Under the pieces are notes generated by a model. It searched no databases. It was not told the DNA's origin and saw only the letters and a program-made list of their open reading frames with translations. Positions 7,395-31,117 of a stretch of DNA of 64,000 bases are shown piece after piece. The stretch's first letter is position 1, and every line of letters begins with the position of its first letter. Origin of the DNA: Candidatus Hadarchaeota archaeon (GTDB lineage Archaea > Hadarchaeota > Hadarchaeia > Hadarchaeales > Hadarchaeaceae); contig CAZETV010000001.1 in assembly GCA_964514965.1 (NCBI GenBank), forward strand, positions 889,239 through 953,238, given 5' to 3'. The position numbers and the translations under genes were made by a program.

Positions 7395-8867
7395 ATGGGT
7401 CGAGTGAGCAGGCTTAGCACCCCACACGGTGATGTGACAACCCCCACTCTTATGCCTGTTATCAATCCATCGGATGTAATTTTATCGCCCAACCAGATGC
7501 GTCGTGAGTTCGGCTCTGAGTTAGTGATAACAAACGCTTACCTAACCCGTCGCTGCTTCGGAGAAAATGCGACCAAAAAAGGGATTCACGGCGTTCTTGA
7601 TTACGATGGCCCAATCGCAACCGATTCTGGAGGTTATCAGATTTTACGCTACGGTGACGTGGATGTCAGTCCTGAGGAAATTGTGCGCTACCAAGAAGCA
7701 ATCGCTCCTGATATCGCGACTATCCTCGATATCCCGACTGGTGTTCGAGCGACTAAGACGCATGCAGCAGAAACGGTGCGGATAACACTTGAGCGAGCCA
7801 AACAGGCGGTCGAACTCAGGTCCAACCCTAAAGTGATGTGGTGTGGACCGGTGCAGGGGGGTCTCTTCAGCGATTTGGTCGCCCAGAGTGCACGCGAGAT
7901 TGGGAAGCTCGACTTTCAGCTGCACGCGATAGGGAGCCCCGTCGAGTTGCTAGAGGGATATCGTTATGCGGAGCTTGTCGATCTCGTCATGACTGCGAAG
8001 CAGCACCTGCCACTCGATCGCCCCACGCATCTTTTCGGTGCAGGACATCCTATGATGTTTGCGCTCGCCGTGGCGATGGGCTGTGACTTCTTCGACTCCG
8101 CTGCGTACGTGCTCTACGCGCGTGATGGCCGTTACATGACATCGGATGGAACATTTTGTCTCGATGAGCTATCTTATCTGCCATGTGAGTGCCCTGTTTG
8201 TGTGGCGCATTTGCCAAATGAGTTCAGACATGTCTCGCAGGACGAGCGAATCAAACTCTTGGCTAGGCACAATCTTCATGTCGCTTTCGGTGAGCTGCGA
8301 CGCATCCGTCAGGCGATTGTTGAGGGAAGTTTATGGGCATATCTCGAGATGCGGTGTCGCGCCCATCCGCGACTGCTTGATGGGTTTCGAAGATTAGTGA
8401 AATATCGAGATTTCATCGAGCGGTTTGACCCAGTGACCAAGCCATCAGCATTCTGCTATCTTGGTGAAGGATCTGCGAATCGTCCGGAGGTCGTGCGCCA
8501 TAGAAGGAGGCTTGAGGAGCGTTATAGTCCACCTCCGTTGTCCACCCTAGCACTTCTACCGGCCTTTGAAGGCGAGCGCCCCAAGCTGGAGAAATTTGAG
8601 CAAACCCACCTCGTAAGACTAGTGCCTCCTTTCGGCATCGTCCCTGAGGAACTCGAAGAGGTTTACCCGCTCGGGCAATTTCAGATACCTCGAGAACTTG
8701 ACGCGGTACAGATTAAATCAGTGACCGAGGCCCTTTCTCGCTTTTTCGAGCGGTACGGTGAACACTACGAACGAGTCTTGCTGTTCAACGACGAACGACG
8801 ATGGGGCAACGCACTCGTTGATGCATGCGAAAAAGTTGAGGAAAAACTAAAAACAATTCAGCTCTGA
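7395..8867 (+). CDS. tgtA: Archaeosine tRNA-guanine transglycosylase
   Basis: 490 aa TIM-barrel TGT with zinc site CECPVCVAH and tRNA-guanine transglycosylase core motifs (TDSGGYQ). Confidence 0.7.
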   Translation: MGRVSRLSTPHGDVTTPTLMPVINPSDVILSPNQMRREFGSELVITNAYLTRRCFGENATKKGIHGVLDYDGPIATDSGGYQILRYGDVDVSPEEIVRYQEAIAPDIATILDIPTGVRATKTHAAETVRITLERAKQAVELRSNPKVMWCGPVQGGLFSDLVAQSAREIGKLDFQLHAIGSPVELLEGYRYAELVDLVMTAKQHLPLDRPTHLFGAGHPMMFALAVAMGCDFFDSAAYVLYARDGRYMTSDGTFCLDELSYLPCECPVCVAHLPNEFRHVSQDERIKLLARHNLHVAFGELRRIRQAIVEGSLWAYLEMRCRAHPRLLDGFRRLVKYRDFIERFDPVTKPSAFCYLGEGSANRPEVVRHRRRLEERYSPPPLSTLALLPAFEGERPKLEKFEQTHLVRLVPPFGIVPEELEEVYPLGQFQIPRELDAVQIKSVTEALSRFFERYGEHYERVLLFNDERRWGNALVDACEKVEEKLKTIQL

Positions 8868-10730: not shown

Positions 10731-11669
10731 TCACTGTTGTGACAAGGAGAGAATCTGCATACGTGTATCGGAAAGTTTTCGCGCGATGAGTTCCGCTACC
10801 TTCATCATCACCAGATATCCTCGATGGTGATTTTTTTTGAAGATTTTATCTACCAATTCATCAGCGACAATAGTAACAACTTTTGCCTTGTCCAAACAGC
10901 GCGCGTGAGTAGTGAACTTGCGAGTGCGAAGTAGAGAGGGATAGCCAAAAAGCCTACCTTTGGTCATCGTATAGACGGAAATTCTCTTTCCAGGGTAAAT
11001 TTCTATTTCGATGGAAACCCTTCCTTCCAGGGACATGTATATTTTTTCTGCTTTGTCCCCCTCTTTGAAAATCAAGTCCCCCTGTTCGAACTCCTCGACT
11101 TTTGCCAGTTTGGCAATGTCTTTCAGTTCTTCCAATGTTAAAAACTCAAAAATATCCATTTCCTTCAAAATTTCCGGTTTCACTGCCATCTTACCCTCTT
11201 CTTGATTGTTTATTTCTTTTAAAACTTTTTCGGCTAGAGTAGGCAATTTTTTTTCGATGGTTTTGCTCAATCTGTCGCCCCATGAAACTTTCTTTGGTTG
11301 TATGCCGACAATTCTCACATTTTTAAAATCGTAACCAATTTTCTTCCCCACCTTGATGACATCGATTAAATCAATTTCATGTAGTGAAAATTTCTCGCTG
11401 CTTGGCATGGCGAGGATCTGCTCGGCGTCAAAGCTAGCAATATAGCCTGGTTCTTTTCCCATATCCGCGGCGTCTACTAGCACTACCTTTTCAAAGCCCT
11501 TCATCTCTTCCAGAAACTCGAATCCAAAAATAGCCCCATCTACAAGTTTTATCTTATTATCTAGGACTCTGCTCTTCAAGTACTCCACACATCTTATGCC
11601 CACACCTTCATCTTTCAGTAGGATATTTCCTAGGCCGACGATGAGTTTGCGCTCATTCAACGAAATCAA
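10731..11669 (-). CDS. Hydrogenase maturation endopeptidase (HycI/HybD family) fused to a C-terminal cyclic-nucleotide-binding (CAP-like) domain
   Basis: N-terminal 155 aa carry protease motifs (LIVGLGNILLKDEGVGI, VVLVDAADMG, SLHEIDL); C-terminal 150 aa carry a cNMP-binding beta-roll signature (FKEGDKAEKIYMSLEGRVSIE...KGRLFGYPSLL). Single uninterrupted ORF directly downstream of the hydrogenase large subunit. Confidence 0.7.
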   Translation of the reverse strand: MISLNERKLIVGLGNILLKDEGVGIRCVEYLKSRVLDNKIKLVDGAIFGFEFLEEMKGFEKVVLVDAADMGKEPGYIASFDAEQILAMPSSEKFSLHEIDLIDVIKVGKKIGYDFKNVRIVGIQPKKVSWGDRLSKTIEKKLPTLAEKVLKEINNQEEGKMAVKPEILKEMDIFEFLTLEELKDIAKLAKVEEFEQGDLIFKEGDKAEKIYMSLEGRVSIEIEIYPGKRISVYTMTKGRLFGYPSLLRTRKFTTHARCLDKAKVVTIVADELVDKIFKKNHHRGYLVMMKVAELIARKLSDTRMQILSLSQQ

Positions 11670-12984
11670 CTTTCAGCATGTGGGTTGAACATGAAATGCA
11701 TGGGTCATAAGCTCTGACTAGCATCTCCAATAAACGGGTGATCTCCTTTTTTGGTTTGTCTAGTATCTCCGGTACCAATCTCCGAATATCTCCTTCAATG
11801 TTGGCTAGATTTTGTGCCGTTGGAATGATGCAGTTCGCCGATTCGATTAGACCGCGATCATTAAGTTTGTACTCGTGGATTAGGAGCCCTCTAGGGGCCT
11901 CAACTATGCCTACACCCCAACTCCTTTTTATGTTGGGAAGTTTTACTGACCAACCTGCGATTGGCGGCCGTTTTTCCCTCTCATCCTTTATCCCCTGCGA
12001 TAATAACTCCTCAATCAATTCTACCATGGACTCCAGACAATGTACGAGTTCAACTATTTGGGCGAAAGTTATGTGGTAAGGATTATAGCTTAGGGTCTCC
12101 AATCCAAGTTCCTCCGCTGTTTCCCTCGCCTTTGGCGTCAGTTGCTTGAAGTTGTTGTTGAATCTGGAAAGGGCACCCACCATATACGGTTTCATAGGGC
12201 CTAATGCATGCTTTGCTGTGGAATAATCTACGACATTTTCGCGTATCTTGTGTTTGTAGTCTCTCTGTTGATATTTGTCAGTTTCAGAAGATTTTATCGT
12301 CCCATCGTAGAATGCGTACTCATCGGGGTGGGTAAAACAAACGTAGTCGGTTTTCCTTTCGAATTGGGGGGCTTTAAATTTAGAGAAAAATTTGACTGTA
12401 CTTGGAACATCTTTTTCTAAAAATTGTTTTATTTTGGAGAGTAGTTCCCGCATTTGGTCATTGGTCACCAAGTTAGTGAAGCCGTCCACGGTCATGGAGA
12501 TAGGATGTGTATGTCGACCCACAATTGTATCACAGATATCGTGGGCAAGTTTTTTCCAGCTGATGCCTGTTTTCACAACCTCTGGAGAGGTAGAAGCTAG
12601 GGGGATTATTGAGTGTGTTCCAACAAAATCTGGGGCAGCGAGGAAGAAGCAGTGGAGGGCATGAGAATCCATAATTTCTGCAGCTGTTAGAATTTTCCTC
12701 AAGGTCTCCGTTTGCCAAGTGGGTTTAATGCCAAGTGCATCTTCAATTGCCTTTATGGAGGCATTCGTGTGTGATATAGAACAGATGCCACAAATACGGC
12801 TGACGATGTGAACAGCTTCAGAAAAACGCCGGCCGGCCAGCATCGCTTCAAAAAAGCGAGGTGACTCGGCAATTTCGAGTTTGACCTCTTTCAACTCCCC
12901 TCTTTTTACATCTACAACGATGTTCCCGTGACCTTCAATTCTGGCGATATGATGGACATGAACGTTGATGTCTTTTCTACTCAT
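11653..12984 (-). CDS. hydA: [NiFe] hydrogenase large (alpha) subunit, sulfhydrogenase-like (group 3b-type)
   Basis: N-terminal RxCGxCxxxH motif (RICGICSISH) and C-terminal DPCxxCxxH motif (DPCISCSTH). Confidence 0.85.
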   Translation of the reverse strand: MSRKDINVHVHHIARIEGHGNIVVDVKRGELKEVKLEIAESPRFFEAMLAGRRFSEAVHIVSRICGICSISHTNASIKAIEDALGIKPTWQTETLRKILTAAEIMDSHALHCFFLAAPDFVGTHSIIPLASTSPEVVKTGISWKKLAHDICDTIVGRHTHPISMTVDGFTNLVTNDQMRELLSKIKQFLEKDVPSTVKFFSKFKAPQFERKTDYVCFTHPDEYAFYDGTIKSSETDKYQQRDYKHKIRENVVDYSTAKHALGPMKPYMVGALSRFNNNFKQLTPKARETAEELGLETLSYNPYHITFAQIVELVHCLESMVELIEELLSQGIKDEREKRPPIAGWSVKLPNIKRSWGVGIVEAPRGLLIHEYKLNDRGLIESANCIIPTAQNLANIEGDIRRLVPEILDKPKKEITRLLEMLVRAYDPCISCSTHMLKVDFVE

Positions 12985-13730
12985 CTTACCAACCCACTCA
13001 ACCCGTTGTACATACGATAAAACCTCAACTTATCTTCGGCGGATATTCCATATTTCTCCAAGACCTCTTCGAAAGCGTCCAAATTGGGGTCGGGGATTGG
13101 TCCTCGACATCCTTCACAAGCATTCCCCACAGATGGACAGGCCGCCCCGCAGCCTGCTCTCGTTATCGGTCCCATGCAAACAATAGGGTTCGGTTTATGG
13201 TATAGGCAGACGTTTCCTTTCATTTTACACTCAACGCAGATAGGATAATCCGGGACAAAAGGTTTCGTGCCGTTTAAAAGGGAGGCTGTGACACGCAAAA
13301 ACTCCTTTTTATCGATGGGACACTCCGGGATAAAGTAATCCACCTTAATGATCGCATCGACAGGCTGGGCCAATATGGAATCAAAAACCCATGCCTTGTC
13401 CCCGTAGACCCTCTTTCTGATCTCTAGCTGATTGTGAAAGTTTTTAATGGCGTTGATTCCAGCGATATGAGCGCATGCGCCCAATGCCACACATATTTTC
13501 GCCCTCTTTCTAATTTTCCTGACCCTCTCTATATCTTGAGAAGTAGAGATCGAACCTTCGATGAAAGCAATATCGTAATCCTGTCCCTTGTAACTAGATG
13601 CCTCACGAAAGTTTACTATATCCACCGATTCGAATAGGTCCAGAAGTTTTTCTCCTAAGGAAAGGACGGTCAACTGGCAACCTTCGCAGCAGGTGAAGTC
13701 AAAAAATGCCACTTTTGGTTTCTTCATCAT
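12981..13730 (-). CDS. hydD: [NiFe] hydrogenase small (delta) subunit
   Basis: 249 aa with proximal cluster cysteines (FFDFTCCEGCQL) and further Cys ligands. Confidence 0.8.
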   Translation of the reverse strand: MMKKPKVAFFDFTCCEGCQLTVLSLGEKLLDLFESVDIVNFREASSYKGQDYDIAFIEGSISTSQDIERVRKIRKRAKICVALGACAHIAGINAIKNFHNQLEIRKRVYGDKAWVFDSILAQPVDAIIKVDYFIPECPIDKKEFLRVTASLLNGTKPFVPDYPICVECKMKGNVCLYHKPNPIVCMGPITRAGCGAACPSVGNACEGCRGPIPDPNLDAFEEVLEKYGISAEDKLRFYRMYNGLSGLVR

Positions 13731-14542
13731 ATAGCCTCTGGCAAATTTTTAATTTGATTGTAGTTGAAAACTGGGCCATCTTGACAAACATAGATGTTGT
13801 TGATTTGGCAATGCCCGCATTTTCCTACTCCACATTTCATCTTGCGCTCCAATGATATCCAGATGTTTTCATCAGGAACTTTGCGATTTTTCAGTTCCCT
13901 GATGACAAAGCGATACATGACTGGTGGGCCGACAATGGCCGCTTGGGTTTTTCTAGGATCGAACTGAATATGGGGGAAAAGGTTGGTGATGACCCCTACG
14001 TTGCCCTGCCATGTTTCGTCTCCGACATCAACCGTTACATGATACTCGACATCATCTCTTTCTTCCCAGCTATTCAACTCCTCTTTGAAAAGAAGTTCCT
14101 GTGGTCTCCTCGAACCGTAGAGGATGTAGACTTTTCCATAATCTTCTCTGGAATTTAAAACGGTCCAGATGAAAGAACGAAGGGGGGCCAGCCCAAGCCC
14201 TCCTGCTATGAAGAGTATGTCTTTTCCCTTGAAATACTTAAGTTCAAACCCTTTACCGAAAGGACCTCGAATTCCAATTTTATCTCCTGATTTCCTGCTG
14301 TGCAGAGCTCTGGTGACATTCCCAATCGCCCGTACACATAGTTGAAATGTCGGTAAGCTGGAGGGAGCGGACGAGATGGAGATGGGAGCCTCTCCAACGC
14401 CAAAAACCGATACCTCCACAAATTGTCCTGGCTGATAGTTGAGATTTTTTCCTGACAGAAGCTCGATTTCAAACAAACGTTCCGTTTTGGTAAGTTGTTC
14501 TATTTTGTTTATTCTTGCTATCTCGGGCGCATAGATCGTCAT
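13727..14542 (-). CDS. hydG: Hydrogenase gamma subunit (FAD/NAD(P)-binding with 2Fe-2S)
   Basis: 271 aa ferredoxin-NADP-reductase-like fold with C-terminal Cys cluster (CGVGKCGHCQ). Confidence 0.75.
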   Translation of the reverse strand: MTIYAPEIARINKIEQLTKTERLFEIELLSGKNLNYQPGQFVEVSVFGVGEAPISISSAPSSLPTFQLCVRAIGNVTRALHSRKSGDKIGIRGPFGKGFELKYFKGKDILFIAGGLGLAPLRSFIWTVLNSREDYGKVYILYGSRRPQELLFKEELNSWEERDDVEYHVTVDVGDETWQGNVGVITNLFPHIQFDPRKTQAAIVGPPVMYRFVIRELKNRKVPDENIWISLERKMKCGVGKCGHCQINNIYVCQDGPVFNYNQIKNLPEAI

Positions 14543-15633
14543 ATCCGCTTCCTCTTCTCATAAAGTTCATTTTCGATGTCTAAAGGATCAACAATCTTCG
14601 TTAAGCAAGCTTTTCCACATCTTCCACATCCAGTGCAAAAAGACTTCCCCCATTTTTCAAAAAGGTACCAGTCCTTCCGGTTGGTTCTGTGACGCAATCG
14701 AGTACCCCTTTCTTCTCTGAATATCTCTCCTGAGGCCACCCTAGTGAAATCGGTAAGAAGACAACCGTCCCAGAAGCGAGAACGATTCCCCCGCTTCAAG
14801 TTTAACTCGATATAATCTCTTACATCAAAGCAGTAACAGGTGGGGCAGACCATGTTGCAAGACCCGCAGTTGAAACACTTTGCTCCATGCTCATCCCATA
14901 CACGGCTGTCGTAATTTTCTTTCAGTAGCTTGGGTAGGTCTTCAAGTTTGGGCTTAAGCTTTCGCTGCTGTTTATTAAAGAAATTGTCTCTTCTCCTTCG
15001 GATTTTTCCCAATTCCTTGGCATCTGATCGGGTCGCTTTTTTAGCAATCCCAGAAATAAGAGATTCTCCTCTTTTGGAACCTACTTCTACAAAGAAGTTG
15101 TCCCCCATATCGGTTAAGAAAAGGTCAAACCCCTCCCGCGGAAGTACGGACCCCTTGCGGTAGCAGAATGACTCTGGGGAGCAGGGGAGGAGACATTCCG
15201 CTCCGATTATAGTTAGATACCCCCGCTTCTTGAGATAATTTTCATCCAAATTTTTTTCCGAGAAAACTTTATCCAAAAGTGCAGTTCCATTTATGTCGCA
15301 AGGATGGATCCCGAGTAAAATCACCGGTTTTGCATCCATCTTGGCCTCTACCTTGACCTCATCGTCAACTTCGTATTCGGTCAATTCTTCTTCTTGTGGG
15401 AAAAGAAAAGTTTTTGGAGGGATGACTGTTTGAGGACCTTCCCAGAGAATCTCTTTCGTGGACTTTATCGGTTTAAAATTAGCTTGATTTTCCTGCTTCA
15501 CGGGGGCTACTACTTCTTTTCCGTCTCTAATTATTCTATCAATTAACTTTAAAAAATCTTTTTTGGTTATCGAATATTTCCCCATTTTTTCACCATTCTG
15601 GATTTCCAAATTCACTGCTATCCAAGCCATCAC
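14539..15633 (-). CDS. hydB: Hydrogenase beta subunit (iron-sulfur)
   Basis: 364 aa with multiple 4Fe-4S Cys motifs (CFNCGSCNMVCPTCYC, CTGCGRCGKAC). Confidence 0.75.
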   Translation of the reverse strand: MMAWIAVNLEIQNGEKMGKYSITKKDFLKLIDRIIRDGKEVVAPVKQENQANFKPIKSTKEILWEGPQTVIPPKTFLFPQEEELTEYEVDDEVKVEAKMDAKPVILLGIHPCDINGTALLDKVFSEKNLDENYLKKRGYLTIIGAECLLPCSPESFCYRKGSVLPREGFDLFLTDMGDNFFVEVGSKRGESLISGIAKKATRSDAKELGKIRRRRDNFFNKQQRKLKPKLEDLPKLLKENYDSRVWDEHGAKCFNCGSCNMVCPTCYCFDVRDYIELNLKRGNRSRFWDGCLLTDFTRVASGEIFREERGTRLRHRTNRKDWYLFEKWGKSFCTGCGRCGKACLTKIVDPLDIENELYEKRKRI

Positions 15634-15657
15634 CTTTATCAGGCTTATTTAATTAAT

Positions 15658-15672
15658 TATCGTATCGATAAT
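15658..15672. promoter_or_regulatory. Inverted repeat TTATCG-N3-CGATAA upstream of the hydrogenase operon
   Basis: Perfect 6-bp half-sites separated by 3 nt, about 25-40 bp upstream of the hydB start in an AT-rich intergenic region; a candidate operator or promoter element. Confidence 0.2.
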
Positions 15673-15847
15673 TTCTTGTTGAATCGCAATTCATGTTTAA
15701 TATTCCCCCGATAGAGAAATTTTTGTCCATGTTAAACCTTTTCGTTCTTTAATTAAGCAGCTCCAGCATTTGAAGTGCAAGTTAGTTTGTAATAGGCGTC
15801 GCGAAAGGAGTTGCCTTTCTTTTTCGAATTTAAGAGTGCAGATAGAA

Positions 15848-16114
15848 TTATCCCATCTTGTAGACGAGATCACCTTCACGCACGCGCTCTTGGACTCTCA
15901 ACCCAATTGATTGCCCCGCGCCAGCGCTCTGCACTTTTTCGTGCTCAATCTGTATTGAATCCACCGTCTGTTGGATATTGGTCGTCGCGCCTTCAATCGA
16001 TATTTTATCGCCTACTTTGACCTCGTCACTTAGGTCCACGACTCCAACCCCTATCTTTGTAAAGTAGTGGGATATTTTACCCACGAGTTTCTTCTCAACG
16101 GGTGCTTCTTCCAT
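15848..16114 (-). CDS. Hypothetical small protein (88 aa)
   Basis: ORF between the cbiO end and the hydrogenase operon; no diagnostic motif recognised. Confidence 0.35.
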   Translation of the reverse strand: MEEAPVEKKLVGKISHYFTKIGVGVVDLSDEVKVGDKISIEGATTNIQQTVDSIQIEHEKVQSAGAGQSIGLRVQERVREGDLVYKMG

Positions 16115-16202
16115 TCAATTCACCAGATTAAGATAAGTTGACCCTAATTTATGCCTTTTCCTCTTCCACCAGTTGACTTTAGTATCGACAATTGAGGGTC
16201 TC

Positions 16203-16877
16203 TCATTTGAAAATCTCACTTTTTTTGCCAATTTCCTTTACGATTTTTCCATCATTGATCAGATAAGTTCGGTTACATATTTTCATTAAATCTAAATCAT
16301 GTCCTGCCACTACCATCGTGTGGTGTTTTTTAAGTTCTTTTAAAAGTTTCATAAACTCTTTTTTTATCCAAGGGTCGAGAGCCAATGTTGGCTCATCAAG
16401 AACCAAAATCTCAGGCTTCATGGAGAGTACGGTTGCTATTGCGACTCTTTTCTTTTCCCCGTAGCTTAAGTGATGCGAGCTTCGGTTTTCTAACCTTTCA
16501 AGACCCACAGCTTTTAGTGCTTTTCTAACTCTCCTTTTTACTTCCCATTCACTGAGCCCCATATTTACTGGCCCAAACGCGACATCTTCGAAAACCGTCG
16601 GCATGAACATTTGGTCATCTGGATTTTGGAACACAAGCCCCACTTTGCTTCTGACTTCCCTTGTTTTTTTGCGTAAATCCATCCCGATAACGCGTACACG
16701 ACCTCTTTGTGGCTGTAGGATGCCGTTTAAGTGAAGAAGAAGAGTAGATTTTCCTGAGCCGTTGGGGCCTATTAAGCATATGCTCTCCTCTCTTTCGATA
16801 TCTAGGTTAATGCCATGTAACGCTTTCGTACCATCAGGATAGGTGTAGTGCAGATTTTTTATTTCAATAGCTTTCAT
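16203..16877 (-). CDS. cbiO: ECF/CbiO-type ABC transporter ATPase (cobalt/nickel)
   Basis: Walker A (GPNGSGKST), ABC signature (LSYGEKKR) and Walker B (LVLDEP). Confidence 0.8.
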   Translation of the reverse strand: MKAIEIKNLHYTYPDGTKALHGINLDIEREESICLIGPNGSGKSTLLLHLNGILQPQRGRVRVIGMDLRKKTREVRSKVGLVFQNPDDQMFMPTVFEDVAFGPVNMGLSEWEVKRRVRKALKAVGLERLENRSSHHLSYGEKKRVAIATVLSMKPEILVLDEPTLALDPWIKKEFMKLLKELKKHHTMVVAGHDLDLMKICNRTYLINDGKIVKEIGKKSEIFK

Positions 16878-17674
16878 ACCACCACTAATATTAGTATTAG
16901 AAGTAAGAAAAAGCTAGAGAAGAAGAAGGTATCCGATCTCTTGAATTCAAGTTTGTGTGTTAGCTTAATTTCCCCATTGAACCCTCTGGATCGCATTGCA
17001 GTATAAATGCGCTCTCCTCTTTCATAGCTTTTTGCGAACAATGTTCCAATCATGTATCCAAAGAGTTTTACATTTTGTAATCTGCTAAGACTAGGTGCCC
17101 TTGCATCGCGTGCCCTGCGCATTCGCTCGAACTCATCTATAGCGATGAAAATAAAGCGGTACATAAAAGAGAGAATCATTACGAAGATTTTTGGCAGTTT
17201 CAGTCTTTGAAATCCGTTTAGGAGTTTCGGAAACGGGGTTGTTGAAGTAAGAGCGATCATGGCAAGCACACAAAGCCACGATTTTACAAGCACGTTGAGA
17301 AAAATCAACAGGGCTGAGTGGGTTATTCTAAAAATGCCAATATTGTATGATCCAGCTGCGTCACCACCGCCTAAGAACGGCAACCCTATAGCAACGAGCA
17401 GCACAAATGGAACTATCACCGAGGATCTCTTCAGGATAAATCTAAGCGGAACTCGTGAGATTAGGATAATCGAGAAGACTAGTGCCCCGTAAAAGGCGAA
17501 TTTCGGGGCCTGAGTTATTGGAGTGAAAATTACGAAGAAAAGGAAGGAAAAAAGCGCGATTATTTTCACTCTTGGGTCTAAAACATGTATTGAACTATGC
17601 AAATTACTATGCTGGTCTAGAAAATGATGCTTCATATGCTGTTTCAGCGTCTCCGTTTTAAGATTGTACCCCAA
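16874..17674 (-). CDS. cbiQ: Cobalt/nickel ECF transporter transmembrane component CbiQ
   Basis: Multi-TM 266 aa protein translationally coupled to cbiO and cbiN. Confidence 0.7.
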   Translation of the reverse strand: MGYNLKTETLKQHMKHHFLDQHSNLHSSIHVLDPRVKIIALFSFLFFVIFTPITQAPKFAFYGALVFSIILISRVPLRFILKRSSVIVPFVLLVAIGLPFLGGGDAAGSYNIGIFRITHSALLIFLNVLVKSWLCVLAMIALTSTTPFPKLLNGFQRLKLPKIFVMILSFMYRFIFIAIDEFERMRRARDARAPSLSRLQNVKLFGYMIGTLFAKSYERGERIYTAMRSRGFNGEIKLTHKLEFKRSDTFFFSSFFLLLILILVVV

Positions 17675-17937
17675 CCCAGAGTTATACCGATAATGATAAA
17701 CACTCCGACTAGACCCGCTAGCGATGTGGCAAGTGCTTTATTTTCAATGCCGGGGATGGCATAGTCAGGCATCGGAGAGTGCATGGCTTCTTGTCCCTCA
17801 GCTTTCTCTGCGAATCCTTGATCCTCTGCAACTCGTTCGAGACCATCTGGCTCGGAGGAGGCGAAAAGCGATAGCACACATGCCATAGAGATCGCGATGA
17901 CAAGTCCGGCGATCCACCATTTTTCTTTGAGTTTCAT
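17644..17937 (-). CDS. cbiN: Cobalt/nickel transport protein CbiN-like small membrane protein
   Basis: 97 aa with two TM helices, located between cbiM and cbiQ. Confidence 0.55.
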   Translation of the reverse strand: MKLKEKWWIAGLVIAISMACVLSLFASSEPDGLERVAEDQGFAEKAEGQEAMHSPMPDYAIPGIENKALATSLAGLVGVFIIIGITLGWGTILKRRR

Positions 17938-17945
17938 TTTTTCAC

Positions 17946-18581
17946 CTAGATTTTTGGTAGCTTCAGCAAGTCTGGCCGCGTCTTTAGGACGAAGCTAATT
18001 ACCGAAATGGTGATGGCGGCCTCGATGATGCCGATTATTACGTGGATTCCTACCATTGCCGGCAGAGCTATCCCAAGAGGCGAAGTTCCTGAAGCTGCTA
18101 ACTCAAATGCGCATGCCGCCGACGCGAGCACCACAGCGATCCAAGCAGCGACGCCAGCTCCAATAATCATGCCTCTGTCCCCTTTCACAGCTTTTTTAAC
18201 ACCCTGGTAGATGAAATAGCCAAGGATGGTGCCAATAAGCCCCATGTTGATGATGTTCGCGCCCATCGTAGTTATCCCTCCATCTTGGAAGAATATTGCT
18301 TGTACACCAAAGATTGACCCCATTACAATCGATCCAGCCAGCGGGCCGACAAAAACAGCGATGAGTACTCCGCCGAGCATATGTCCGCTGGTGCCGCCAG
18401 CTACTGGCACGTTTAACATTTGTGCTGCGAAAATGAATGCTGCTAGCACGCCTAGTAGTGGAACGTGCCTATCTCCAAGTTTTTTATTAGTCCTCCAAAC
18501 TGCGACGACCAGAATCAGCATAGCGACTACCCACAATGGTGCCCATACCGCAACGCTTAGAAATCCATCTGGTATGTGCAT
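17946..18581 (-). CDS. cbiM: Cobalt/nickel ECF transporter substrate-capture component CbiM/NikM
   Basis: Start set to ATG at 18581 giving the N-terminus MHIPDGFLS; the ORF-track start at 18680 would abut the nikR start. Confidence 0.8.
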   Translation of the reverse strand: MHIPDGFLSVAVWAPLWVVAMLILVVAVWRTNKKLGDRHVPLLGVLAAFIFAAQMLNVPVAGGTSGHMLGGVLIAVFVGPLAGSIVMGSIFGVQAIFFQDGGITTMGANIINMGLIGTILGYFIYQGVKKAVKGDRGMIIGAGVAAWIAVVLASAACAFELAASGTSPLGIALPAMVGIHVIIGIIEAAITISVISFVLKTRPDLLKLPKI

Positions 18582-18597
18582 AATGGCCCCATCTGGG

Positions 18598-18627
18598 AGT
18601 AATACTTTTTGGTATAAAAATATTACT
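18598..18627. promoter_or_regulatory. Candidate NikR operator: AGTAATA-N16-TATTACT
   Basis: Perfect 7-bp inverted repeat with 16-bp spacer, in the 97-bp divergent intergenic region between cbiM (start 18581) and nikR (start 18679); the spacer contains a TATA-like GGTATAAAAATA. Confidence 0.45.
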
Positions 18628-18678
18628 GTCATAGATAACTTGAAAAACACTTGGCAACGAAGTTTGCAGGGAGTTGGC

Positions 18679-19083
18679 ATGCCGAAAAAGATAACGCGAG
18701 TGAGCTTGACGTTGCCTCAAGATTTGTTGGATGAGCTCGATTGCTCTCTTAAAGCTCAAGGTTATACAAGTCGTTCGGAGGCGATCCGTGATGCTTTACG
18801 AGATTTTTTGGCGAGCTACAAGTGGCGCAAGGAGCTTAAGGGCGAACGTATCGGGGTCGTAATACTAGTGTACGAGCACGATGTCCGAGGGCTGATTGAC
18901 GCACTCATGGATATCCAGCACGTGAGTTCGAGTATAATAAGCGCAGTCCAGCATTTGCATGTCGACGCCAAAAACTGCTTGGAAACACTGATTGTCAAGG
19001 GCCCCTCAGAGGAGATCCGCAAGCTTGTCGATCGCTTGGGCGCCCTGCGAGGCGTCAAACAGGTCAAGCTGGTGGTTGTTTGA
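18679..19083 (+). CDS. nikR: Nickel-responsive regulator NikR
   Basis: 134 aa; N-terminal ribbon-helix-helix (KITRVSLTLPQDLLDELD...GYTSRSEAIRDALRDFL) plus C-terminal ACT-like metal-binding domain with His/Cys (EHD...HVD..C). Start taken at ATG 18679, not the 285-aa ORF-track extension. Confidence 0.8.
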   Translation: MPKKITRVSLTLPQDLLDELDCSLKAQGYTSRSEAIRDALRDFLASYKWRKELKGERIGVVILVYEHDVRGLIDALMDIQHVSSSIISAVQHLHVDAKNCLETLIVKGPSEEIRKLVDRLGALRGVKQVKLVVV

Positions 19084-19667
19084 AATTAAATGAATTTTTG
19101 GAAAGGCTTAACAACCTCAAGCGAATCTCCCGCACGGGCTGGTTGATTTGCAACGTCCCACTCAGCGAGGTCGAGGATGTGGCGCAGCATACCTTCGACG
19201 TTACGGCAATAACCCTGTTACTTGCCGATGAACTCGAGCGTAAAGGCAAGAAACTTGACAGGGAGCGAGCTCTAAGCATGGCGGTCGTGCACGATTGGGC
19301 TGAGGTCGAAGTCGGAGATTTTCCCTACACGGCGTTGAAATACTTAGGTCCCGCTGGTACGAAGAAACGCATAGAGAGGGGAGTACTTGAGGATATTCTG
19401 AATGGGCTGCCGAATAAAGAAAAATACCTAAAGCTTTGGTTGGAATATAGCGAGAAACGCACTCTCGAGGCTAAGCTCGTTCATGTGGCAGATTATATAT
19501 CAATGCTCGTGCAGGCGGTCAAATATCGTGAGCGAGGCAATCGTTCTAAGGAACTCGATGAGCTTTGGCATGCGGTTCGCAAGGATATCAAGATTTATGG
19601 AAAGGAATTGCCGCCAATAATGGCGTTGATAAAAGAATTTGACAGACGCTATTCTAGTCTCCAATGA
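19080..19667 (+). CDS. HD-domain phosphohydrolase
   Basis: HD motif context (HTFDV...HDWAEVEVGD); TTG start overlapping the nikR stop. Confidence 0.6.
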   Translation: MKLNEFLERLNNLKRISRTGWLICNVPLSEVEDVAQHTFDVTAITLLLADELERKGKKLDRERALSMAVVHDWAEVEVGDFPYTALKYLGPAGTKKRIERGVLEDILNGLPNKEKYLKLWLEYSEKRTLEAKLVHVADYISMLVQAVKYRERGNRSKELDELWHAVRKDIKIYGKELPPIMALIKEFDRRYSSLQ

Positions 19668-21812: not shown

Positions 21813-23681
21813 ATGGACCAGATTTCAATCGTCTTTCAGCCTTATGGCAAGAGGGTTCGCGCGTCTAACGATGATGACATACTGGAGATTGCAAATAGGG
21901 CTGGAATAAACATCAGGAGTATATGCGGCGGTAAGGGGAGCTGCGGCAAGTGCAAGGTGATAATAAGAAAAGGGAGGATCGATTTTAGATACAATCAAAA
22001 GGAAAAGCTTCTGACGGAGGAAGAACTCTCAAGCGGGTATGTGTTGGCTTGTTTAACCCGCTGCGAGTCGGACTGTGAAGTGCTGGTTCCACCTGAGTCT
22101 AGAATTGAGGGGCAAAAAATACTCTCGGACGCCACGATACCTGAAATCCAGATTGACCCCGCGGTTAAGAAATTCTTTATCCCGCCCAAGCAACTCCGCG
22201 GCCAATCCGCCGAACAGCTCATGAAGAGCTTTCAATCGTTTACCAAGGCGCGCAGCTTCTCGGACGAAGTCGGTTCAAAGCTAAAATCTATCGCTGACCG
22301 ATGCGGCGAGGAAGGAGCAACCCTGACCGTTTGGTTGTTGAAGCCTACGAAGATTTTGGATGTAGAGATCGGGGATACATCGAAAAGGAACTTCGGCCTT
22401 GCAATCGATATCGGGACAACAAAGCTTTCTGCATATCTTGTGGACCTAACGACGGGGAAAATCCTCGGAAGTGAATCCGATTACAATCGACAGCTGATGT
22501 ACGGTGAAGACTTGGTTTCGAGAATTGGGTATACGGTGGACAGAGAAGATGGGATAAAAAACATGCAGAGGGCGGTACTTAATACAGCTAATAACTTGAT
22601 CAAAAGGCTAGCCTCGAATCACGGTGTGGAAGCGAGTTGGATAACTGACGTGTGTACTGCAGGGAACACCGTGATGACCTATTTTTTCCTGAATAAGGAT
22701 GCATCTCCCCTCCTCGAACCGAACGCTGAGGTATCAAAGCAATCGATGATTACGGATGCTCAGTCCATAGGTCTTGGGGTTAATTCCGAGGCAAAAGTTT
22801 ACTGCCTGCCTTGCGTGAGCAGATTTTTAGGCGGGGACATCATTGGGGACGTCCTGCTCTCGCGAATCTACGCGTCTGAAGAAATCTCTTTGCTTTTAGA
22901 TATCGGAACAAACGTTGAGGTCATCTTCGGGAGCAAGGGATGGTTCCTTTCTACGACTGCGGCTGCGGGTCCGGCTTTTGAAGGGTGGGGAATAAAATTC
23001 GGAATGAGGTCGGTCGAAGGAGCAATAGACCATGTGAAGATTGACCCGGAGACTCTAAAGGCGAGCTTTACAGTTATCGGAGGGGTGAAACCGAGGGGGA
23101 TATGTGGTTCGGGCTTGATAGATGCGATGAGCGAGATGTTCAGGAATGGTATCTTAGATAGCTTGGGGAAGGTGAATATGAAGCTGGGCTCCCCCTACGT
23201 TCGGAGCGGCGAGGAAGGGTATGAATACGTTGTGGCGCCAGCTTCTGAAACGGACATCGGCAAGGATATAGTCATAACCAAAAAGGACATTCTAAACCTC
23301 ATCGATTCCAAGGCCGCGGCTTGCTCCTCCATCAGCGTTATAATGAAAAAAATGAATTTGTCCGTGCACGATGTTGCCAATGTGTATGTTTGTGGTGCGT
23401 TTGCCAACTACATGGACCTGAACAGCGCGATGGCGATAGGGCTCCTGCCGGAATTCCCAAAAGCCCAAATGAAGTTCCTCGGAAACGGTTCGGTAGCCGG
23501 GGCTTATTTGACATTAATTTCTCAGGAGCAGAGGAAAAAAGCAGATGAGATAGCAAGCTTGATGGCTTACTTCGATTTGCTCAAGGATGCGGACTTTATG
23601 GATGAATATACGGCGGCCTACATGCTTCCCGGAAAACGTGAGCTTTTCCCGACATGGTGGGAAGCGAGCCGGAAAAGGTAA
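21813..23681 (+). CDS. Reductive activator of corrinoid iron-sulfur protein (RACo-like): 2Fe-2S ferredoxin plus ASKHA ATPase
   Basis: N-terminal plant-type ferredoxin Cys motif (CGGKGSCGKCKV...C) followed by an ASKHA-like ATPase domain (DIGTTKL...); convergent with cdhE. Confidence 0.7.
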   Translation: MDQISIVFQPYGKRVRASNDDDILEIANRAGINIRSICGGKGSCGKCKVIIRKGRIDFRYNQKEKLLTEEELSSGYVLACLTRCESDCEVLVPPESRIEGQKILSDATIPEIQIDPAVKKFFIPPKQLRGQSAEQLMKSFQSFTKARSFSDEVGSKLKSIADRCGEEGATLTVWLLKPTKILDVEIGDTSKRNFGLAIDIGTTKLSAYLVDLTTGKILGSESDYNRQLMYGEDLVSRIGYTVDREDGIKNMQRAVLNTANNLIKRLASNHGVEASWITDVCTAGNTVMTYFFLNKDASPLLEPNAEVSKQSMITDAQSIGLGVNSEAKVYCLPCVSRFLGGDIIGDVLLSRIYASEEISLLLDIGTNVEVIFGSKGWFLSTTAAAGPAFEGWGIKFGMRSVEGAIDHVKIDPETLKASFTVIGGVKPRGICGSGLIDAMSEMFRNGILDSLGKVNMKLGSPYVRSGEEGYEYVVAPASETDIGKDIVITKKDILNLIDSKAAACSSISVIMKKMNLSVHDVANVYVCGAFANYMDLNSAMAIGLLPEFPKAQMKFLGNGSVAGAYLTLISQEQRKKADEIASLMAYFDLLKDADFMDEYTAAYMLPGKRELFPTWWEASRKR

Positions 23682-23698
23682 GGATACATTTTCGTCGT

Positions 23699-25117
23699 TT
23701 AGGAGTTTTTCCATTTCTCTTTGACGAATTTCGATATTCCCGAGGAGTCCCGGGGCCCTACCATAACTTCCCACCCGGTCTCGTCTTCGATCTCCCCCGA
23801 AAGCCTTGCGGCCATCCCCGGGATTATGAGCTTTTTGTGTTTGACCATTTTTTCTACGCCGGATTCCTTGACGACCTCGGCCACCTGCTTTGCGGTCAGC
23901 TTTCTACCGGCAACGGCGCTCTCAAGAGATATCCCTTCGGAGTCGGCCACGAGCAGGTAGCAATCGATTTTAGCGGCCTCGATATCCCCAGAGACGATAT
24001 AATATGTCAGGGCGAAGTTGCTCGTCACGAAAACGGGGGATGTTTCATTTGGATTGCCTATAGGCCTCAATCCGGGTTTGACCGAGACGGGCTTTCTAGG
24101 GTCTGTGTACATGTTGAATCTTAGCACGACGTTCGGCAATAGGGTCCAGCCCTCTAAACTGTGCATTATCAATATGTCTGTATACCTCTCTATCAGCATG
24201 GCCGCCACGAGCGCCTCTCGCCAAGCCTTCGATTGACCTTCCCCATTAGATGATGCCCACGCGGTTATCGGGGTTCCCATCAAGGGAAAACCGGATAGTT
24301 TATCTTCTTCGTTGCAAGCCTTCCATCGGAGCATCGTGAGCGCGTTTATGGTTGATGATAGACCTTCGCCGGAAAATGTGCCTGGGTCGATCACCAAGTT
24401 TTTCACACCATAGTCCAAGAGCGTTTTGGTCAGGGATCTTAACGTGCCCAAGTCATTCGGGCTGGAAACGGTCAAAGGACACTTATGCTTTAAAGAGAGC
24501 TCGGCCATCTCCTTCCAGTTATCCTTCGTTGCCGCGTAGAGAAGGGGGCTACTATCCCCGATTGCCGATAATCCTGCCTTCATGACTTCCGGGTTCAACG
24601 AACAGAGGACAAGGGGTAGGTTCGTGTTATTGCTCACAAATTTCACGATTTTCCCGAATTTTTTTGGTTCGTTTGAAACCGATCTAACGGCCAAGGCGTC
24701 GAGAGTTAGCTCCTTTCCTATGTAAGTGTAATCGAAATTTTCAACGAACTTGATTCTTTTCATCAACTCACTTTCACTCATTTCATCGGTTACATCGAGG
24801 GCGATCGTTGTGGGGTTAAAGTAAGTTAGTTCGTGCCTATGCATGACGAATTCTCCCCCGATCTTTGCCACTTTGCCCTTGTTCCCGAATTCCACCTCGT
24901 TCACGGATGGGCTCAGCATAACCTTCAACTCCGAGTAATTCTTCTTGTACTTTTCATCCTCCAAGAGCGGGGAGCACTTTTCGATTTTTGTCTCCATGTT
25001 CACGAGTCCCACTGCGAAGGCCATGCAGTTTTCCGCTCCGCACTTCTTGCAGTTGGTCCGCGGGAGCAGCGTGTAAACTTTGATTGGGCTAATGTTCTTC
25101 TTAGGCACTTCAACCAC
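23699..25117 (-). CDS. cdhE: CODH/ACS gamma subunit (corrinoid Fe-S protein large subunit)
   Basis: N-terminal 4Fe-4S motif (CKKCGAENCMAF) and TIM-barrel corrinoid-binding region; 472 aa. Confidence 0.85.
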   Translation of the reverse strand: MVEVPKKNISPIKVYTLLPRTNCKKCGAENCMAFAVGLVNMETKIEKCSPLLEDEKYKKNYSELKVMLSPSVNEVEFGNKGKVAKIGGEFVMHRHELTYFNPTTIALDVTDEMSESELMKRIKFVENFDYTYIGKELTLDALAVRSVSNEPKKFGKIVKFVSNNTNLPLVLCSLNPEVMKAGLSAIGDSSPLLYAATKDNWKEMAELSLKHKCPLTVSSPNDLGTLRSLTKTLLDYGVKNLVIDPGTFSGEGLSSTINALTMLRWKACNEEDKLSGFPLMGTPITAWASSNGEGQSKAWREALVAAMLIERYTDILIMHSLEGWTLLPNVVLRFNMYTDPRKPVSVKPGLRPIGNPNETSPVFVTSNFALTYYIVSGDIEAAKIDCYLLVADSEGISLESAVAGRKLTAKQVAEVVKESGVEKMVKHKKLIIPGMAARLSGEIEDETGWEVMVGPRDSSGISKFVKEKWKNS

Positions 25118-26294
25118 CTAATTTCGCCGATGTCCAGTCGGGGATCTCCCTCGCTACCCCATTTTTGAGTAGATAATCGACGATTTCTTTTACAGTTTTC
25201 ACGGATGTTGGATGAAGCATCATGAGGTAATCCGCGCCGGCCAAGAGCATGGACAAAGCCGTTATAGTTTCCCATATGGGCCCTCTGATTTCCTTCGGGC
25301 CCCATATTGGTTCCATCTCCAACCAGGCCTCTCTGGAAGCCCAAGCGTTCGATATCCCAGAGACCAATGGGTGCTGAAGTTCTTGGTCACCTTTCAGAGC
25401 TGCAAGCCTAGCCCGCTCCGCGATGGTGAACCCATATTCAAGACCATAACCTATCCCTGCGCAATTCGTGTCCATAACTATTTGGTTCTTTGATAGATAA
25501 TCGTATAGCCTTCGGTTGAGCTCTCTAGCCTTGTCCAAGTCCATCTGTGTGAAAGCGATGGCCACATGCCCATGCTCTTTGAATGGTTTGCTTGCTTTCT
25601 CGATATCCATGTCCAAGTTGAGAGAGTTTATCAGGAGCCTTTCGCCAGACCCCGCCTCGGCTACTTTTTCAAATACCTCAACATCTTTGGCGGGATTTCC
25701 AGAACCTCCCACGCATAGCGGAACCTTAATGGCTTGGAGAACTTCTTCGATTAACCTCGCCGAGTCTCGAGGAGAAGTGTCTTTAATGTACGGATCCGTG
25801 CTCACCAAGTGTAGGTTAACCATATCTGCGCCGTATTTTTCAACACATTGTTTGGCCCACTCAGGGGGATCTTCTAGCGCATCGCCGAAATAGCTCCTGA
25901 CCGCCCCGGGGAGTGTGATTTTCATGTCGAACACATCCATAGATATCACTGGACGGTGCACCATGGAGCCCTCGAACGTGTAGAATGCCGCTGTAGTCTC
26001 GCCCCCTATGATGTAATTCCTGTCCCGCGTCCCCTCATCGTTCACCTTGGCACCCAGTGTGACTTCGGGGATTTTTCCGACCCACTCGGTTTTCGGAAGA
26101 CTGAATTCGGCCTTGGCCAACTCAGTCGGTTTTACTTTGGTGGGGATAACTCTGTGGAGGGTTGGGAGCATTTTTAATGCTAGTTCTTTAACATCGATTG
26201 TAACGTCTTCCAGCTCAAGCTCTTCATACTTTGACAAATTTCCAACTAAACTGTCGCTGAGTTTTTTGGCGAGGTCATCTTCTTTTTTTGCCAT
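25110..26294 (-). CDS. cdhD: CODH/ACS delta subunit (corrinoid Fe-S protein small subunit)
   Basis: 394 aa TIM-barrel protein between cdhC and cdhE. Confidence 0.8.
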   Translation of the reverse strand: MAKKEDDLAKKLSDSLVGNLSKYEELELEDVTIDVKELALKMLPTLHRVIPTKVKPTELAKAEFSLPKTEWVGKIPEVTLGAKVNDEGTRDRNYIIGGETTAAFYTFEGSMVHRPVISMDVFDMKITLPGAVRSYFGDALEDPPEWAKQCVEKYGADMVNLHLVSTDPYIKDTSPRDSARLIEEVLQAIKVPLCVGGSGNPAKDVEVFEKVAEAGSGERLLINSLNLDMDIEKASKPFKEHGHVAIAFTQMDLDKARELNRRLYDYLSKNQIVMDTNCAGIGYGLEYGFTIAERARLAALKGDQELQHPLVSGISNAWASREAWLEMEPIWGPKEIRGPIWETITALSMLLAGADYLMMLHPTSVKTVKEIVDYLLKNGVAREIPDWTSAKLGG

Positions 26295-26315
26295 CTCATC
26301 CCTCTAAAGTAATGA

Positions 26316-27695: not shown

Positions 27696-28228
27696 TTCCC
27701 TTCCACCTTTTGAGCAATTATTTCCAAATTTTCATGCCAATTTTTAAGCGAGAGATTTGGGAAAGACCAACTGCAATGTGGCTGATAAAATCTGTTTATG
27801 GAGATCGTCTTGAGGTTGGGAACAAAGGATTTGAGCCCAGATTCGATTACCCATTCCATATAATATGGGATTCCTAAGAGCAACGCGAGGTCGTGGGAAC
27901 TTCCTTCACCAGAAACGCTCCACTCCGGGTCGGTGAGTCTAGTACCTATATCCATCGCGGACATCCAGGCATCTGGCTGAAAATCCCTCTTAAGGAACTC
28001 CGCAACAGTTTGAGCAGTGGCAACTACAGGTATTTTCGCAGCTCTTGCGATGCGAATGACATAATCGATTGGCTTTTTATTCCCCAAATCTACTTCAGCA
28101 GCCTCATGCCCGACGATGAAAATCGGACGTTTGGCTTTCTTTATCATCGTGGAGGCAACTTCCGGATTTTTAATCACGAGGGCCTTTTTCGGACCAGGAA
28201 TTTCAGCTTTCTGCCAAGGCTCGGCCAT
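27692..28228 (-). CDS. cdhB: CODH/ACS epsilon subunit
   Basis: 178 aa protein between cdhA and cdhC, the conserved position and size of the epsilon subunit. Confidence 0.7.
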   Translation of the reverse strand: MAEPWQKAEIPGPKKALVIKNPEVASTMIKKAKRPIFIVGHEAAEVDLGNKKPIDYVIRIARAAKIPVVATAQTVAEFLKRDFQPDAWMSAMDIGTRLTDPEWSVSGEGSSHDLALLLGIPYYMEWVIESGLKSFVPNLKTISINRFYQPHCSWSFPNLSLKNWHENLEIIAQKVEGK

Positions 28229-28230
28229 GT

Positions 28231-30573: not shown

Positions 30574-30706
30574 CGAATCGCCTTGTTTAAATTTGTATCT
30601 ACCAATAATAACCCTTTTGAATTGTATGGAATTTCTTATTCATTTTTTTGGAAAAAATACTTAAAAAAAATAATAAAACTAGGTACAAACTGGAATATAG
30701 AAAAAA

Positions 30707-30997: not shown

Positions 30998-31117
30998 TTT
31001 TGGATATAATTGTTTAATTAAACGATTTAAGCTTAATTTTTAAAATGAGCGAAAGAAAGTTACTGTTAAAGTCTTAGACGGCGAATAAGTTTTAGGACGG
31101 AAAATAAAGGTGTTCGA

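Follow-up and report, generated by a model that had tools for sequence, protein, structure and literature searches.

A predicted NikR-regulated nickel importer beside a group 3b [NiFe]-hydrogenase operon in a Hadesarchaea-type genome

Positions 10731-19083 of a 64,000-nucleotide stretch of contig CAZETV010000001.1 from a Candidatus Hadarchaeota archaeon (the window, by which we mean the whole 64-kb stretch that was analysed) bring together genes for an energy-coupling factor (ECF) transporter, the nickel-responsive regulator NikR and a four-subunit [NiFe]-hydrogenase with its maturation endopeptidase. With a probability of about 80%, we interpret the region as two adjacent, separate modules, namely a NikR-controlled NikMNQO importer and a group 3b hydrogenase with its endopeptidase, between which an independent backbone gene encodes a protein of 88 amino acids (aa). 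Gene identities, the fit of the transporter to Nik and its misfit to Cbi families, operator conservation and modular synteny were computed.

Gene content and start sites

The open reading frame (ORF) listing and profile searches revealed ten co-directional genes on the minus strand and one divergent gene. Reading from position 18581, the minus-strand genes are nikM, a gene for a PDGLE-domain protein, nikQ, nikO, the 88-aa ORF, hydB, hydG, hydD, hydA and the endopeptidase ORF (Table 1). A preliminary description of this DNA had listed a cbiMNQO-type transporter, a small unknown protein, a hydrogenase with its protease and a divergent nikR. All of the genes that it named were found on the strands that it gave, including the minus-strand transporter genes O, Q, N and M (16203-18581) and, divergent from them, nikR, and their co-localisation is real. 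Presence and strands held, the extents of the ORFs called cbiM and nikR and the identity of 'CbiN' were corrected, and the protease ORF proved to be a fusion.

Several start sites were revised. The 244-aa ORF called 'cbiM' is over-long, as Pfam and NCBIfam profiles begin only at residue 34/35, at the sequence MHIPDG, and the complete NikM homologues among the matches listed are nearly all 207-217 aa long and start with MHIPDG; nikM was therefore placed at 17946-18581. The nikR gene corresponds to the last 134 codons of a 285-aa plus-strand ORF, which leaves a spacer of 97 bp between nikM and nikR. For hydB, sulfhydrogenase profiles align from M17 (15585) and relatives have GGTGAAAAAATG in common, which makes M17 the most likely predicted start. 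The true start of nikQ is likely M14 at 17635, and nikQ and nikO overlap by 4 nt. The nearest named relatives of NikM come from Hadesarchaea/Hadarchaeum metagenome-assembled genomes (up to 98% identity), and the flanking genes are archaeal as well (archaeosine tRNA-guanine transglycosylase, an IF-2B-like gene and genes of the tetrahydromethanopterin (H4MPT) pathway).

Table 1. Coordinates of the genes, domains and candidate regulatory elements, numbered from the first position of the window
Feature	Position	Strand	Description
cNMP-binding-like (CAP effector) domain	10731-11189	-	PF00027, E 3.8e-12; fused in frame to the endopeptidase
Hydrogenase maturation endopeptidase domain	11205-11669	-	Residues 1-155 of the fused ORF (10731-11669); PF01750
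hydA	11653-12984	-	[NiFe] large subunit; PF00374
hydD	12981-13730	-	Delta (small) subunit; PF01058
hydG	13727-14542	-	Gamma subunit, FAD/NAD(P)-binding and 2Fe-2S; PF00970, PF00175, PF10418
hydB	14539-15585	-	Group 3b beta subunit, Fe-S, AsrA-like; PF17179; ORF reaches 15633
88-aa gene	15848-16114	-	Stand-alone translation-factor domain-II-like beta-barrel
BRE/TATA-like element GAAAAGGCATAAATTAG	16144-16160	-	About 35-50 nt upstream of the 88-aa gene
nikO	16203-16877	-	ECF ATPase, 224 aa; PF00005; TIGR01166, 229.8 bits (cut-off 211.8)
nikQ	16874-17674	-	ECF T component; PF02361; TIGR02454 above cut-off
nikN	17644-17937	-	PDGLE-domain accessory subunit with two transmembrane segments, 97 aa; PF13190, E 2.9e-25
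nikM	17946-18581	-	ECF substrate-capture (S) component, 211 aa, N-terminus MHIPDG; PF01891
Candidate NikR operator	18599-18626		28-bp inverted repeat GTAATAC-N14-ATATTAC in the nikM-nikR spacer
nikR	18679-19083	+	Nickel-responsive ribbon-helix-helix repressor, 134 aa; PF01402 and PF08753
HD-domain (YfbR-like) phosphohydrolase gene	19080-19667	+	PF13023, PF12917
cdhEDCBA	23699-30573	-	Archaeal carbon monoxide dehydrogenase/acetyl-CoA synthase; TIGR00314, 1166 bits; TIGR00316, 638 bits
CooC-like MinD/ParA-family P-loop ATPase	31118-31897	+	PF01656, PF13614, PF02374; divergent from cdhA

NikR, its candidate operator and the separation of the two modules

NikR scored 161 bits against NF002169 (cut-off 111), lay above the cut-offs of three further NikR models in NCBIfam and aligned over its full length with the NikR proteins of Pyrococcus horikoshii and Helicobacter pylori (E ~1e-28; 2BJ1 and 2CA9). 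The four nickel ligands (His/His/His/Cys) are kept and align as the set H-x10-H-x-H-x5-C. The protein thus resembles the NikRs of P. horikoshii, H. pylori and Escherichia coli, which combine a ribbon-helix-helix with a C-terminal nickel-binding domain whose four high-affinity ligands align, and the resemblance extends to a palindromic operator of 27-28 bp and to the position of nikR beside its transporter target. Unlike in these known systems, the half-site in the window is different and one site would span two divergent archaeal TATA-like elements.

The inverted repeat in the nikM-nikR spacer can also be read as a perfect AGTAATA-N16-TATTACT, with arms that extend to 12 nt (18598-18627). It surrounds an AT-rich, TATA-like core, TTTTTGGTATAAAAAT, and its near end is 17 nt away from the ATG of nikM, a position from which nickel-loaded NikR would occlude the TATA elements of both divergent promoters. 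Within the 64-kb window the NikR-type site is unique, with 0.08 sites expected per window (200 shuffles). At hydB, the 88-aa gene and cdhA, no NikR-type site with two or fewer mismatches was found, and matches with three mismatches were rarer than in the shuffled sequences.

Published NikR signals comprise a reversed form, GTAACAC-N13/14-GTGTTAC, and a forward form, GTGTTAC-N13/14-GTAACAC (Rodionov et al. 2004, PMC545781), next to the enterobacterial GTATGAT-N13/14-ATCATAC (PMC545781). The repeat in the window fits this class of signal, the Hadesarchaea variant differing from the reversed form by one transition per half-site. Among related loci, which we refer to by L numbers, the same class of signal lies directly upstream of nikM in L008/9 (Hadarchaeum yellowstonense) and in L010 and L017 (Altiarchaeales), and with two sites each in L011 (Hydrothermarchaeota) and L012 (Methanofastidiosia), the exact published reversed signal GTAACAC-N13-GTGTTAC being present in L010 and L012. 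In L004, L005, L093 and L102 it is found upstream of the gene divergent from nikR. Across related loci, the stretches upstream of nikM hold 8 sites in 20 kb and all other sequence holds 16 in 840 kb, an enrichment of about 20-fold.

Inverted repeats of the GTAACAC type, each with two mismatches, also adjoin nikR in L024 (4513-4539), L025 (1395-1421), L035 (4545-4571) and L039 (1464-1490), loci from Omnitrophota and delta-proteobacteria, which suggests that a signal of the same class may be used across domains. On the other side of nikR, the HD-domain gene, of the YfbR-like 5'-deoxynucleotidase family, begins with a TTG in a 4-nt overlap with the nikR stop codon, and the two genes stay adjacent in L004, L008, L093 and L102; this arrangement suggests that they are co-transcribed.

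Apart from the candidate operator, two of the minus-strand genes carry putative promoter elements of their own. The GAAAGGCATTTAATTAG...GGTGAGGTGAATG element upstream of the 88-aa gene is conserved in L004, L005, L093 and L102, with partial conservation in L001 and L008, and it is kept behind differing genes, namely nikO in the window, the gene for a small membrane protein in L004/L005/L093/L102 and a divergent nikM in L008. Upstream of hydB, a TATA-like element of the TTAATTAA type is found at a distance of about 55-65 nt in several relatives. The 88-aa gene and hydB therefore each appear to have their own promoter.

Comparison of the relatives uncovered a common backbone, in which an IF-2B-like gene is followed by the 88-aa gene and then by nikR and the HD gene, with exchangeable modules in between. 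The slot from the IF-2B-like gene to the 88-aa gene (10.7-15.6 kb in the window) holds the same group 3b operon in the window, L093 and L102, a different [NiFe] enzyme with CCG and Complex1_30kDa subunits in L004 and L005, and an [FeFe] hydrogenase with HydEFG in L001-3, and is empty in L008/9. The uptake slot contains either nikMNQO, in either orientation, or an unannotated membrane protein of about 100 aa, and the two kinds of content combine independently of the type of hydrogenase. Even in L093, the closest relative with the same hydrogenase (89% HydA identity), nikMNQO is not at this site. The site between the IF-2B-like gene and nikR appears in this comparison as a swap-point for hydrogenases and nickel uptake modules.

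These results bear on the suggestion, made in the preliminary description, that transporter and hydrogenase are expressed in a co-ordinated manner. We found no positive evidence for it in the sequence: the NikR box is alone in 64 kb, promoter-like elements precede the downstream genes and the modules are swapped independently in relatives. In its strongest form, the idea would be that the transporter, the 88-aa gene, hydBGDA and the protease make up one nickel-responsive super-operon read from the NikR-controlled promoter, with hydrogenase output tracking nickel, which we consider unlikely. While all ten genes do run in one direction, separated by short gaps in which oligo-T terminators are not obvious, and the NikR-box promoter of L093 and L102 likewise faces the 88-aa gene as well as this hydrogenase operon, the regulatory logic would be inverted because an excess of nickel would repress a nickel enzyme. 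Moreover, hydB lacks a NikR-type site, conserved or TATA-like elements of their own precede the 88-aa gene and hydB, the hydrogenase genes are convergent to the 88-aa gene in L004/L005 and L001, and nikMNQO is inverted relative to the 88-aa gene in L008.

The membrane protein of about 100 aa is encoded in L005 (7599-7919), L004 (7618-7923), L093 (3558-3842), L102 (3523-3840) and L097 (3955-4260). By eye, it has about three hydrophobic, putative transmembrane segments, and it carries a DHLWNGE motif; it matched no Pfam or NCBIfam model and is not present in the window. In each of these loci except L097, its gene lies directly downstream of a NikR-type palindrome, that is, in the position of nikMNQO. 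The protein may be a NikR-regulated component of nickel uptake or handling.

Nickel or cobalt as the transported metal

The preliminary description had proposed that the transporter imports nickel rather than cobalt, and this proposal was supported by the similarity of M to NikM2, an N subunit that is not CbiN, a score below the CbiM cut-off, the lack of a cobalamin riboswitch and the presence of NikR with its candidate operator. Compared with solved structures, the M protein reached 104.8 bits (E 5e-29) with NikM2 of Thermoanaerobacter (4M58) and 38.1 bits with CbiM of Rhodobacter (5X3X). It falls short of the CbiM equivalog model TIGR00123, with 74 bits against a cut-off of 184. Its MHIPDG start and H67 align with NikM2, and H2 and H67 are invariant across 27 relatives. 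As far as sequence can tell, the assignment of the 'CbiMNQO' transporter as a predicted NikMNQO nickel importer is well supported.

The N subunit gave no match to the CbiN family PF02553 at E<=0.01. CbiN is cobalt-specific and the NikN types are nickel-specific, and the two are unrelated in sequence (Zhang et al. 2009, PMC2667541); we infer that the PDGLE protein is of the NikN type. Our literature search on PDGLE returned nothing relevant. In all 80 related reference-genome loci (48-69% identity), a PDGLE-type N follows M, and in 11 of these 80 nikR lies no more than 6 kb from M. In L012, which is outside the 80, nikR is located between the nikMNQO operon and a nikABCDE-like operon.

No Rfam family matched anywhere in the 64-kb window, which therefore contains no cobalamin riboswitch, and no cbi or cob gene is present in it. 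Likewise, none of the 17 bacterial relatives examined has a cobalamin riboswitch upstream of M. L019 (Auribacterota) carries such a riboswitch at 7497-7686, downstream and not upstream of nikM-nikN, where it presumably controls the next gene; nikR, nikQ and nikO are elsewhere in that locus.

The genes of the window share the M-N-Q-O order of NikMNQO systems such as that of T. tengcongensis (NikM2, 4M58), together with an M protein starting MHIP(D/E)G, the equivalent of His67, an N subunit other than CbiN, an adjoining nikR and a NikR-type inverted repeat upstream. They differ in that the operon is archaeal (Hadesarchaea-type), that the operator half-site is GTAATAC and not GTAACAC, and that sister genomes carry the membrane protein of about 100 aa at the same site instead of the operon. 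NikMNQO transporters were reportedly named as ECF-type nickel transporters by Rodionov and colleagues in 2004 and 2006. With the CbiMNQO systems of Salmonella and Rhodobacter capsulatus (5X3X), the window system has in common the ECF group-I architecture and the Pfam families of M, Q and O. In contrast to these systems, it has no CbiN, B12 riboswitch or cbi context, reaches only 38 bits with CbiM and stays below the TIGR00123 cut-off.

We therefore regard it as very unlikely that the transporter serves physiologically to import cobalt, or nickel and cobalt alike, and thereby feeds cobamide synthesis for the corrinoid protein of carbon monoxide dehydrogenase/acetyl-CoA synthase (CODH/ACS). The Pfam families of M, Q and O do carry cobalt names, and the genes of the corrinoid-dependent CdhDE and RACo lie at a distance of 3-7 kb. 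However, M lies much closer to NikM2 than to CbiM and under the CbiM equivalog cut-off, N is not CbiN, the 64 kb hold neither a B12 riboswitch nor a cbi/cob gene, NikR and a NikR-type operator, which predict nickel control, sit at the operon, and orthologues elsewhere adjoin nikR and, in L012, also nikABCDE-like genes.

Several points weigh against our interpretation of a nickel importer next to a separately transcribed hydrogenase operon. The nearest NCBIfam models for M and N are legacy 'cobalt transporter CbiM/CbiN' models, all of them below cut-off, the best for M being NF004902 (200 bits, cut-off 219). S components of the NikM2 type are said, following work of Yu and colleagues from 2014, to bind Co2+ in vitro too, and some cobalt uptake through NikMNQO is possible because the CdhDE/RACo system needs corrinoid. 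The putative promoter elements were deduced only from conserved AT-rich motifs. As the ten genes are co-directional and the gaps of 88 and 262 bp show no oligo-T terminator, transcription may read through into the hydrogenase. Finally, no hypA-F genes were found across the 64-kb window, so that the path of nickel delivery is not visible there.

The hydrogenase, its neighbours and the use of nickel

The genes hydB, hydG, hydD and hydA overlap tightly and encode a beta subunit with a Fer4_22 domain, a gamma subunit with a DHODB-type Fe-S domain, a delta subunit of the Oxidored_q6 family and an alpha subunit of the NiFeSe_Hases family. Among PDB entries, HydA matched the alpha subunits of the Thermococcus kodakarensis and Pyrococcus furiosus sulfhydrogenases best (231-239 bits), followed by Mvh (181), the NAD-reducing hydrogenase 5XF9 (154) and Frh (149 bits). 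The best NCBIfam matches were the sulfhydrogenase models ShyB and HydB for HydB and HydD and ShyD for HydD; HydG scored 283 bits against NF006220, under the cut-off of 395 bits. The ranking of the HydA matches and the beta-gamma-delta-alpha subunit set identify the enzyme as a group 3b [NiFe]-hydrogenase. In the HydA sequence we read RICGICSISH as the L1 motif (RxCGxCxxxH) and DPCISCSTH as the L2 motif (DPCxxCxxH); the final STH is followed by an 8-residue C-terminal extension, MLKVDFVE.

The operon agrees with the group 3b enzymes P. furiosus sulfhydrogenase I/II and T. kodakarensis Hyh in the beta-gamma-delta-alpha order, the domain set, the best matches and a C-terminal extension that needs an endopeptidase. 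In contrast to them, it scores under equivalog cut-offs tuned to Thermococcales (273 versus 880 bits) and closes with a protease and a cNMP-binding-like protein, an ending that is not known from Thermococcales hydrogenase operons.

The 88-aa protein scored 25 bits against PF03144 (EF-Tu domain 2), under the cut-off. Its 120 best relatives are 75-95% identical, and the named ones are mostly 'translation elongation factor-like protein' entries from Hadesarchaea. The family comprises 767 clusters at E<=1e-10; some members stand alone, while others are arranged in tandem or follow a different N-terminal region. Of the best 150 representatives, 98 are 96-200 aa long, and Lys/Arg-rich tails at the N-terminus of 51 of these suggest binding of nucleic acids. 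Residues that hardly vary in the family are Gly, Val, Gln and Ser. An AlphaFold model (mean predicted local distance difference test score 89.7) matched best the C-terminal domain of U32 peptidase (4HE6, TM-score 0.85), domain II of EF-Tu/IF2 and Pbp11 (7ANU, TM-score 0.68), and the family profile matched EF-1alpha domain 2 at E 1e-4 and Pbp11 at E 0.01. Pbp11 of P. abyssi is a small tRNA-binding, proteasome-associated protein (PMC9540759). What the 88-aa protein shares with Pbp11 and the U32 C-terminal domain is the translation-factor domain II fold, in the form of a free-standing beta-barrel of about 88 aa; in sequence, its similarity to them is marginal.

It had been suggested in the preliminary description that this protein is a metallochaperone or a hydrogenase maturation factor, an idea that its position between nickel importer and hydrogenase and the proximity of its gene to nikR in all Hadesarchaea-type loci examined might favour, yet which is hardly tenable and was rejected, since the protein has no Cys, its two His residues, H16 and H58, lack conservation across the family at large, Pfam and NCBIfam gave no HypA/HypC-type match, the fold is that of EF-Tu domain 2, the U32 C-terminal domain and Pbp11, the gene also occurs beside an [FeFe] hydrogenase or where no hydrogenase adjoins, about half of the best family representatives of 96-200 aa have basic tails and the nearest stand-alone analogue to have been characterised is a tRNA binder (PMC9540759). 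A function in binding RNA or protein is more probable for it than one in nickel handling, and with low confidence we would tie this role to translation or proteostasis.

The clustering of nickel genes extends further than the preliminary description had it. RACo, cdhEDCBA and the CooC-like ATPase occupy 21813-31897, and the CODH/ACS operon itself lies about 5 kb from the nickel genes, with CdhA (TIGR00314) and CdhC (TIGR00316) above the equivalog cut-offs. CODH/ACS contributes two nickel-containing active sites, namely the C-cluster of CdhA and the A-cluster of CdhC, and these and the corrinoid protein are encoded within 5-12 kb of nikR; with CODH/ACS so close, the importer probably serves three nickel sites. 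The CooC-like ATPase was not above the cut-off of any specific model, and a role in nickel insertion might be ascribed to it. In some relatives, hypA and an Mrp/ParA-type ATPase gene directly follow nikR.

In the scheme that we propose, NikR repression, the transported metal, separate transcription and the destinations of nickel are inferred. NikM would capture Ni2+ via its free N-terminus (Met1-His2) and His67, NikN of the PDGLE type would assist, and NikQ and NikO would couple import to ATP hydrolysis. When nickel is plentiful, Ni-NikR would bind the 28-bp repeat GTAATAC-N14-ATATTAC and, as this covers the TATA-like core of the divergent nikM/nikR promoters, shut off both the importer and its own synthesis. 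The imported metal would most likely supply the group 3b hydrogenase, a predicted cytoplasmic, NAD(P)-linked enzyme made from hydBGDA whose C-terminus the endopeptidase would process, and the CODH/ACS 5 kb away, while the 88-aa gene would be transcribed independently as a conserved backbone gene.

A NikR-regulated NikMNQO near nickel enzymes is an ordinary, previously described arrangement. Proximity to hydrogenase genes has already been noted for the NikMNQO family (PMC545781), and our findings leave the knowledge of nickel homeostasis unchanged. What they offer is a correction of likely database labels in an uncultured subsurface lineage, from 'cobalt transporter CbiM/N/Q/O' to nickel importer and from 'unknown' to translation-factor-like barrel, and a concrete candidate NikR operator for Hadesarchaea-type genomes (GTAATAC-N14-GTATTAC) that can be used to define the nickel regulon. 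Only the pairing of the protease with a cyclic nucleotide monophosphate (cNMP)-binding domain and the small membrane protein under a NikR box are leads with discovery potential, and that potential is modest.

The endopeptidase part of the 312-aa fused ORF is full length (PF01750 positions 1-130 of 130; TIGR00072, 123.6 bits, cut-off 47) and of the HycI family, and it is followed by the cNMP-binding-like domain. Among 5.8 billion clusters, the fusion was found only in the window protein and in one 89%-identical cluster, whose three members come from other assemblies. The two parts are fused in the window and in L093 (8313-9254) and are separate ORFs in L094 (4126-5068), L096, L097, L099/L100 and L102 (8313-9255). 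In the relatives with separate genes, the TAA of the protease sits 1 nt before the ATG of a cNMP-binding-domain gene of about 150 codons, and in the window and L093 a 1-nt deletion just upstream of the ancestral TAA merges the frames. The gene pair is therefore the conserved feature, and the fusion is recent and restricted to this sub-lineage. A survey of gene fusion and fission in Archaea does not mention a protease-cNMP fusion. That the fusion is a sequencing artefact was considered and rejected, as the same frame is seen in the window, in L093 and in the three-member cluster of other assemblies.

The cNMP-binding-like domain has FGY where the FGE of the phosphate-binding cassette is expected and is missing the RxA arginine; the relatives that were compared also have the motif FGYP(S/A)LL. 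The best alignment of the domain is to the third cNMP-binding domain of the Plasmodium cGMP-dependent protein kinase, which we take to be degenerate and non-binding. Judging from these residues, canonical binding of cAMP or cGMP by the domain is improbable. In all full-length group 3b operons of the Hadesarchaea type that were recovered, the cNMP-binding-like gene stands directly after the endopeptidase gene, and the domain could act as a ligand sensor or scaffold that gates C-terminal processing of the large subunit. That the cNMP-binding-like protein is a dedicated partner in hydrogenase maturation and, relatedly, that the protein of about 100 aa is a new minimal component of nickel uptake are speculative ideas to which we assign a low probability.

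Beyond the CODH/ACS genes, positions 33-57 kb of the window hold a dense methanofuran/H4MPT Wood-Ljungdahl cluster with MfnA/MfnB-like proteins, Mtd, Mch, Ftr and formylmethanofuran dehydrogenase-like subunits. This block is flanked by genes for EndoIII and RrnaAD, which in L001 and L004 adjoin the ACS-HD-nikR region, so that the block may be an insertion or a rearrangement.

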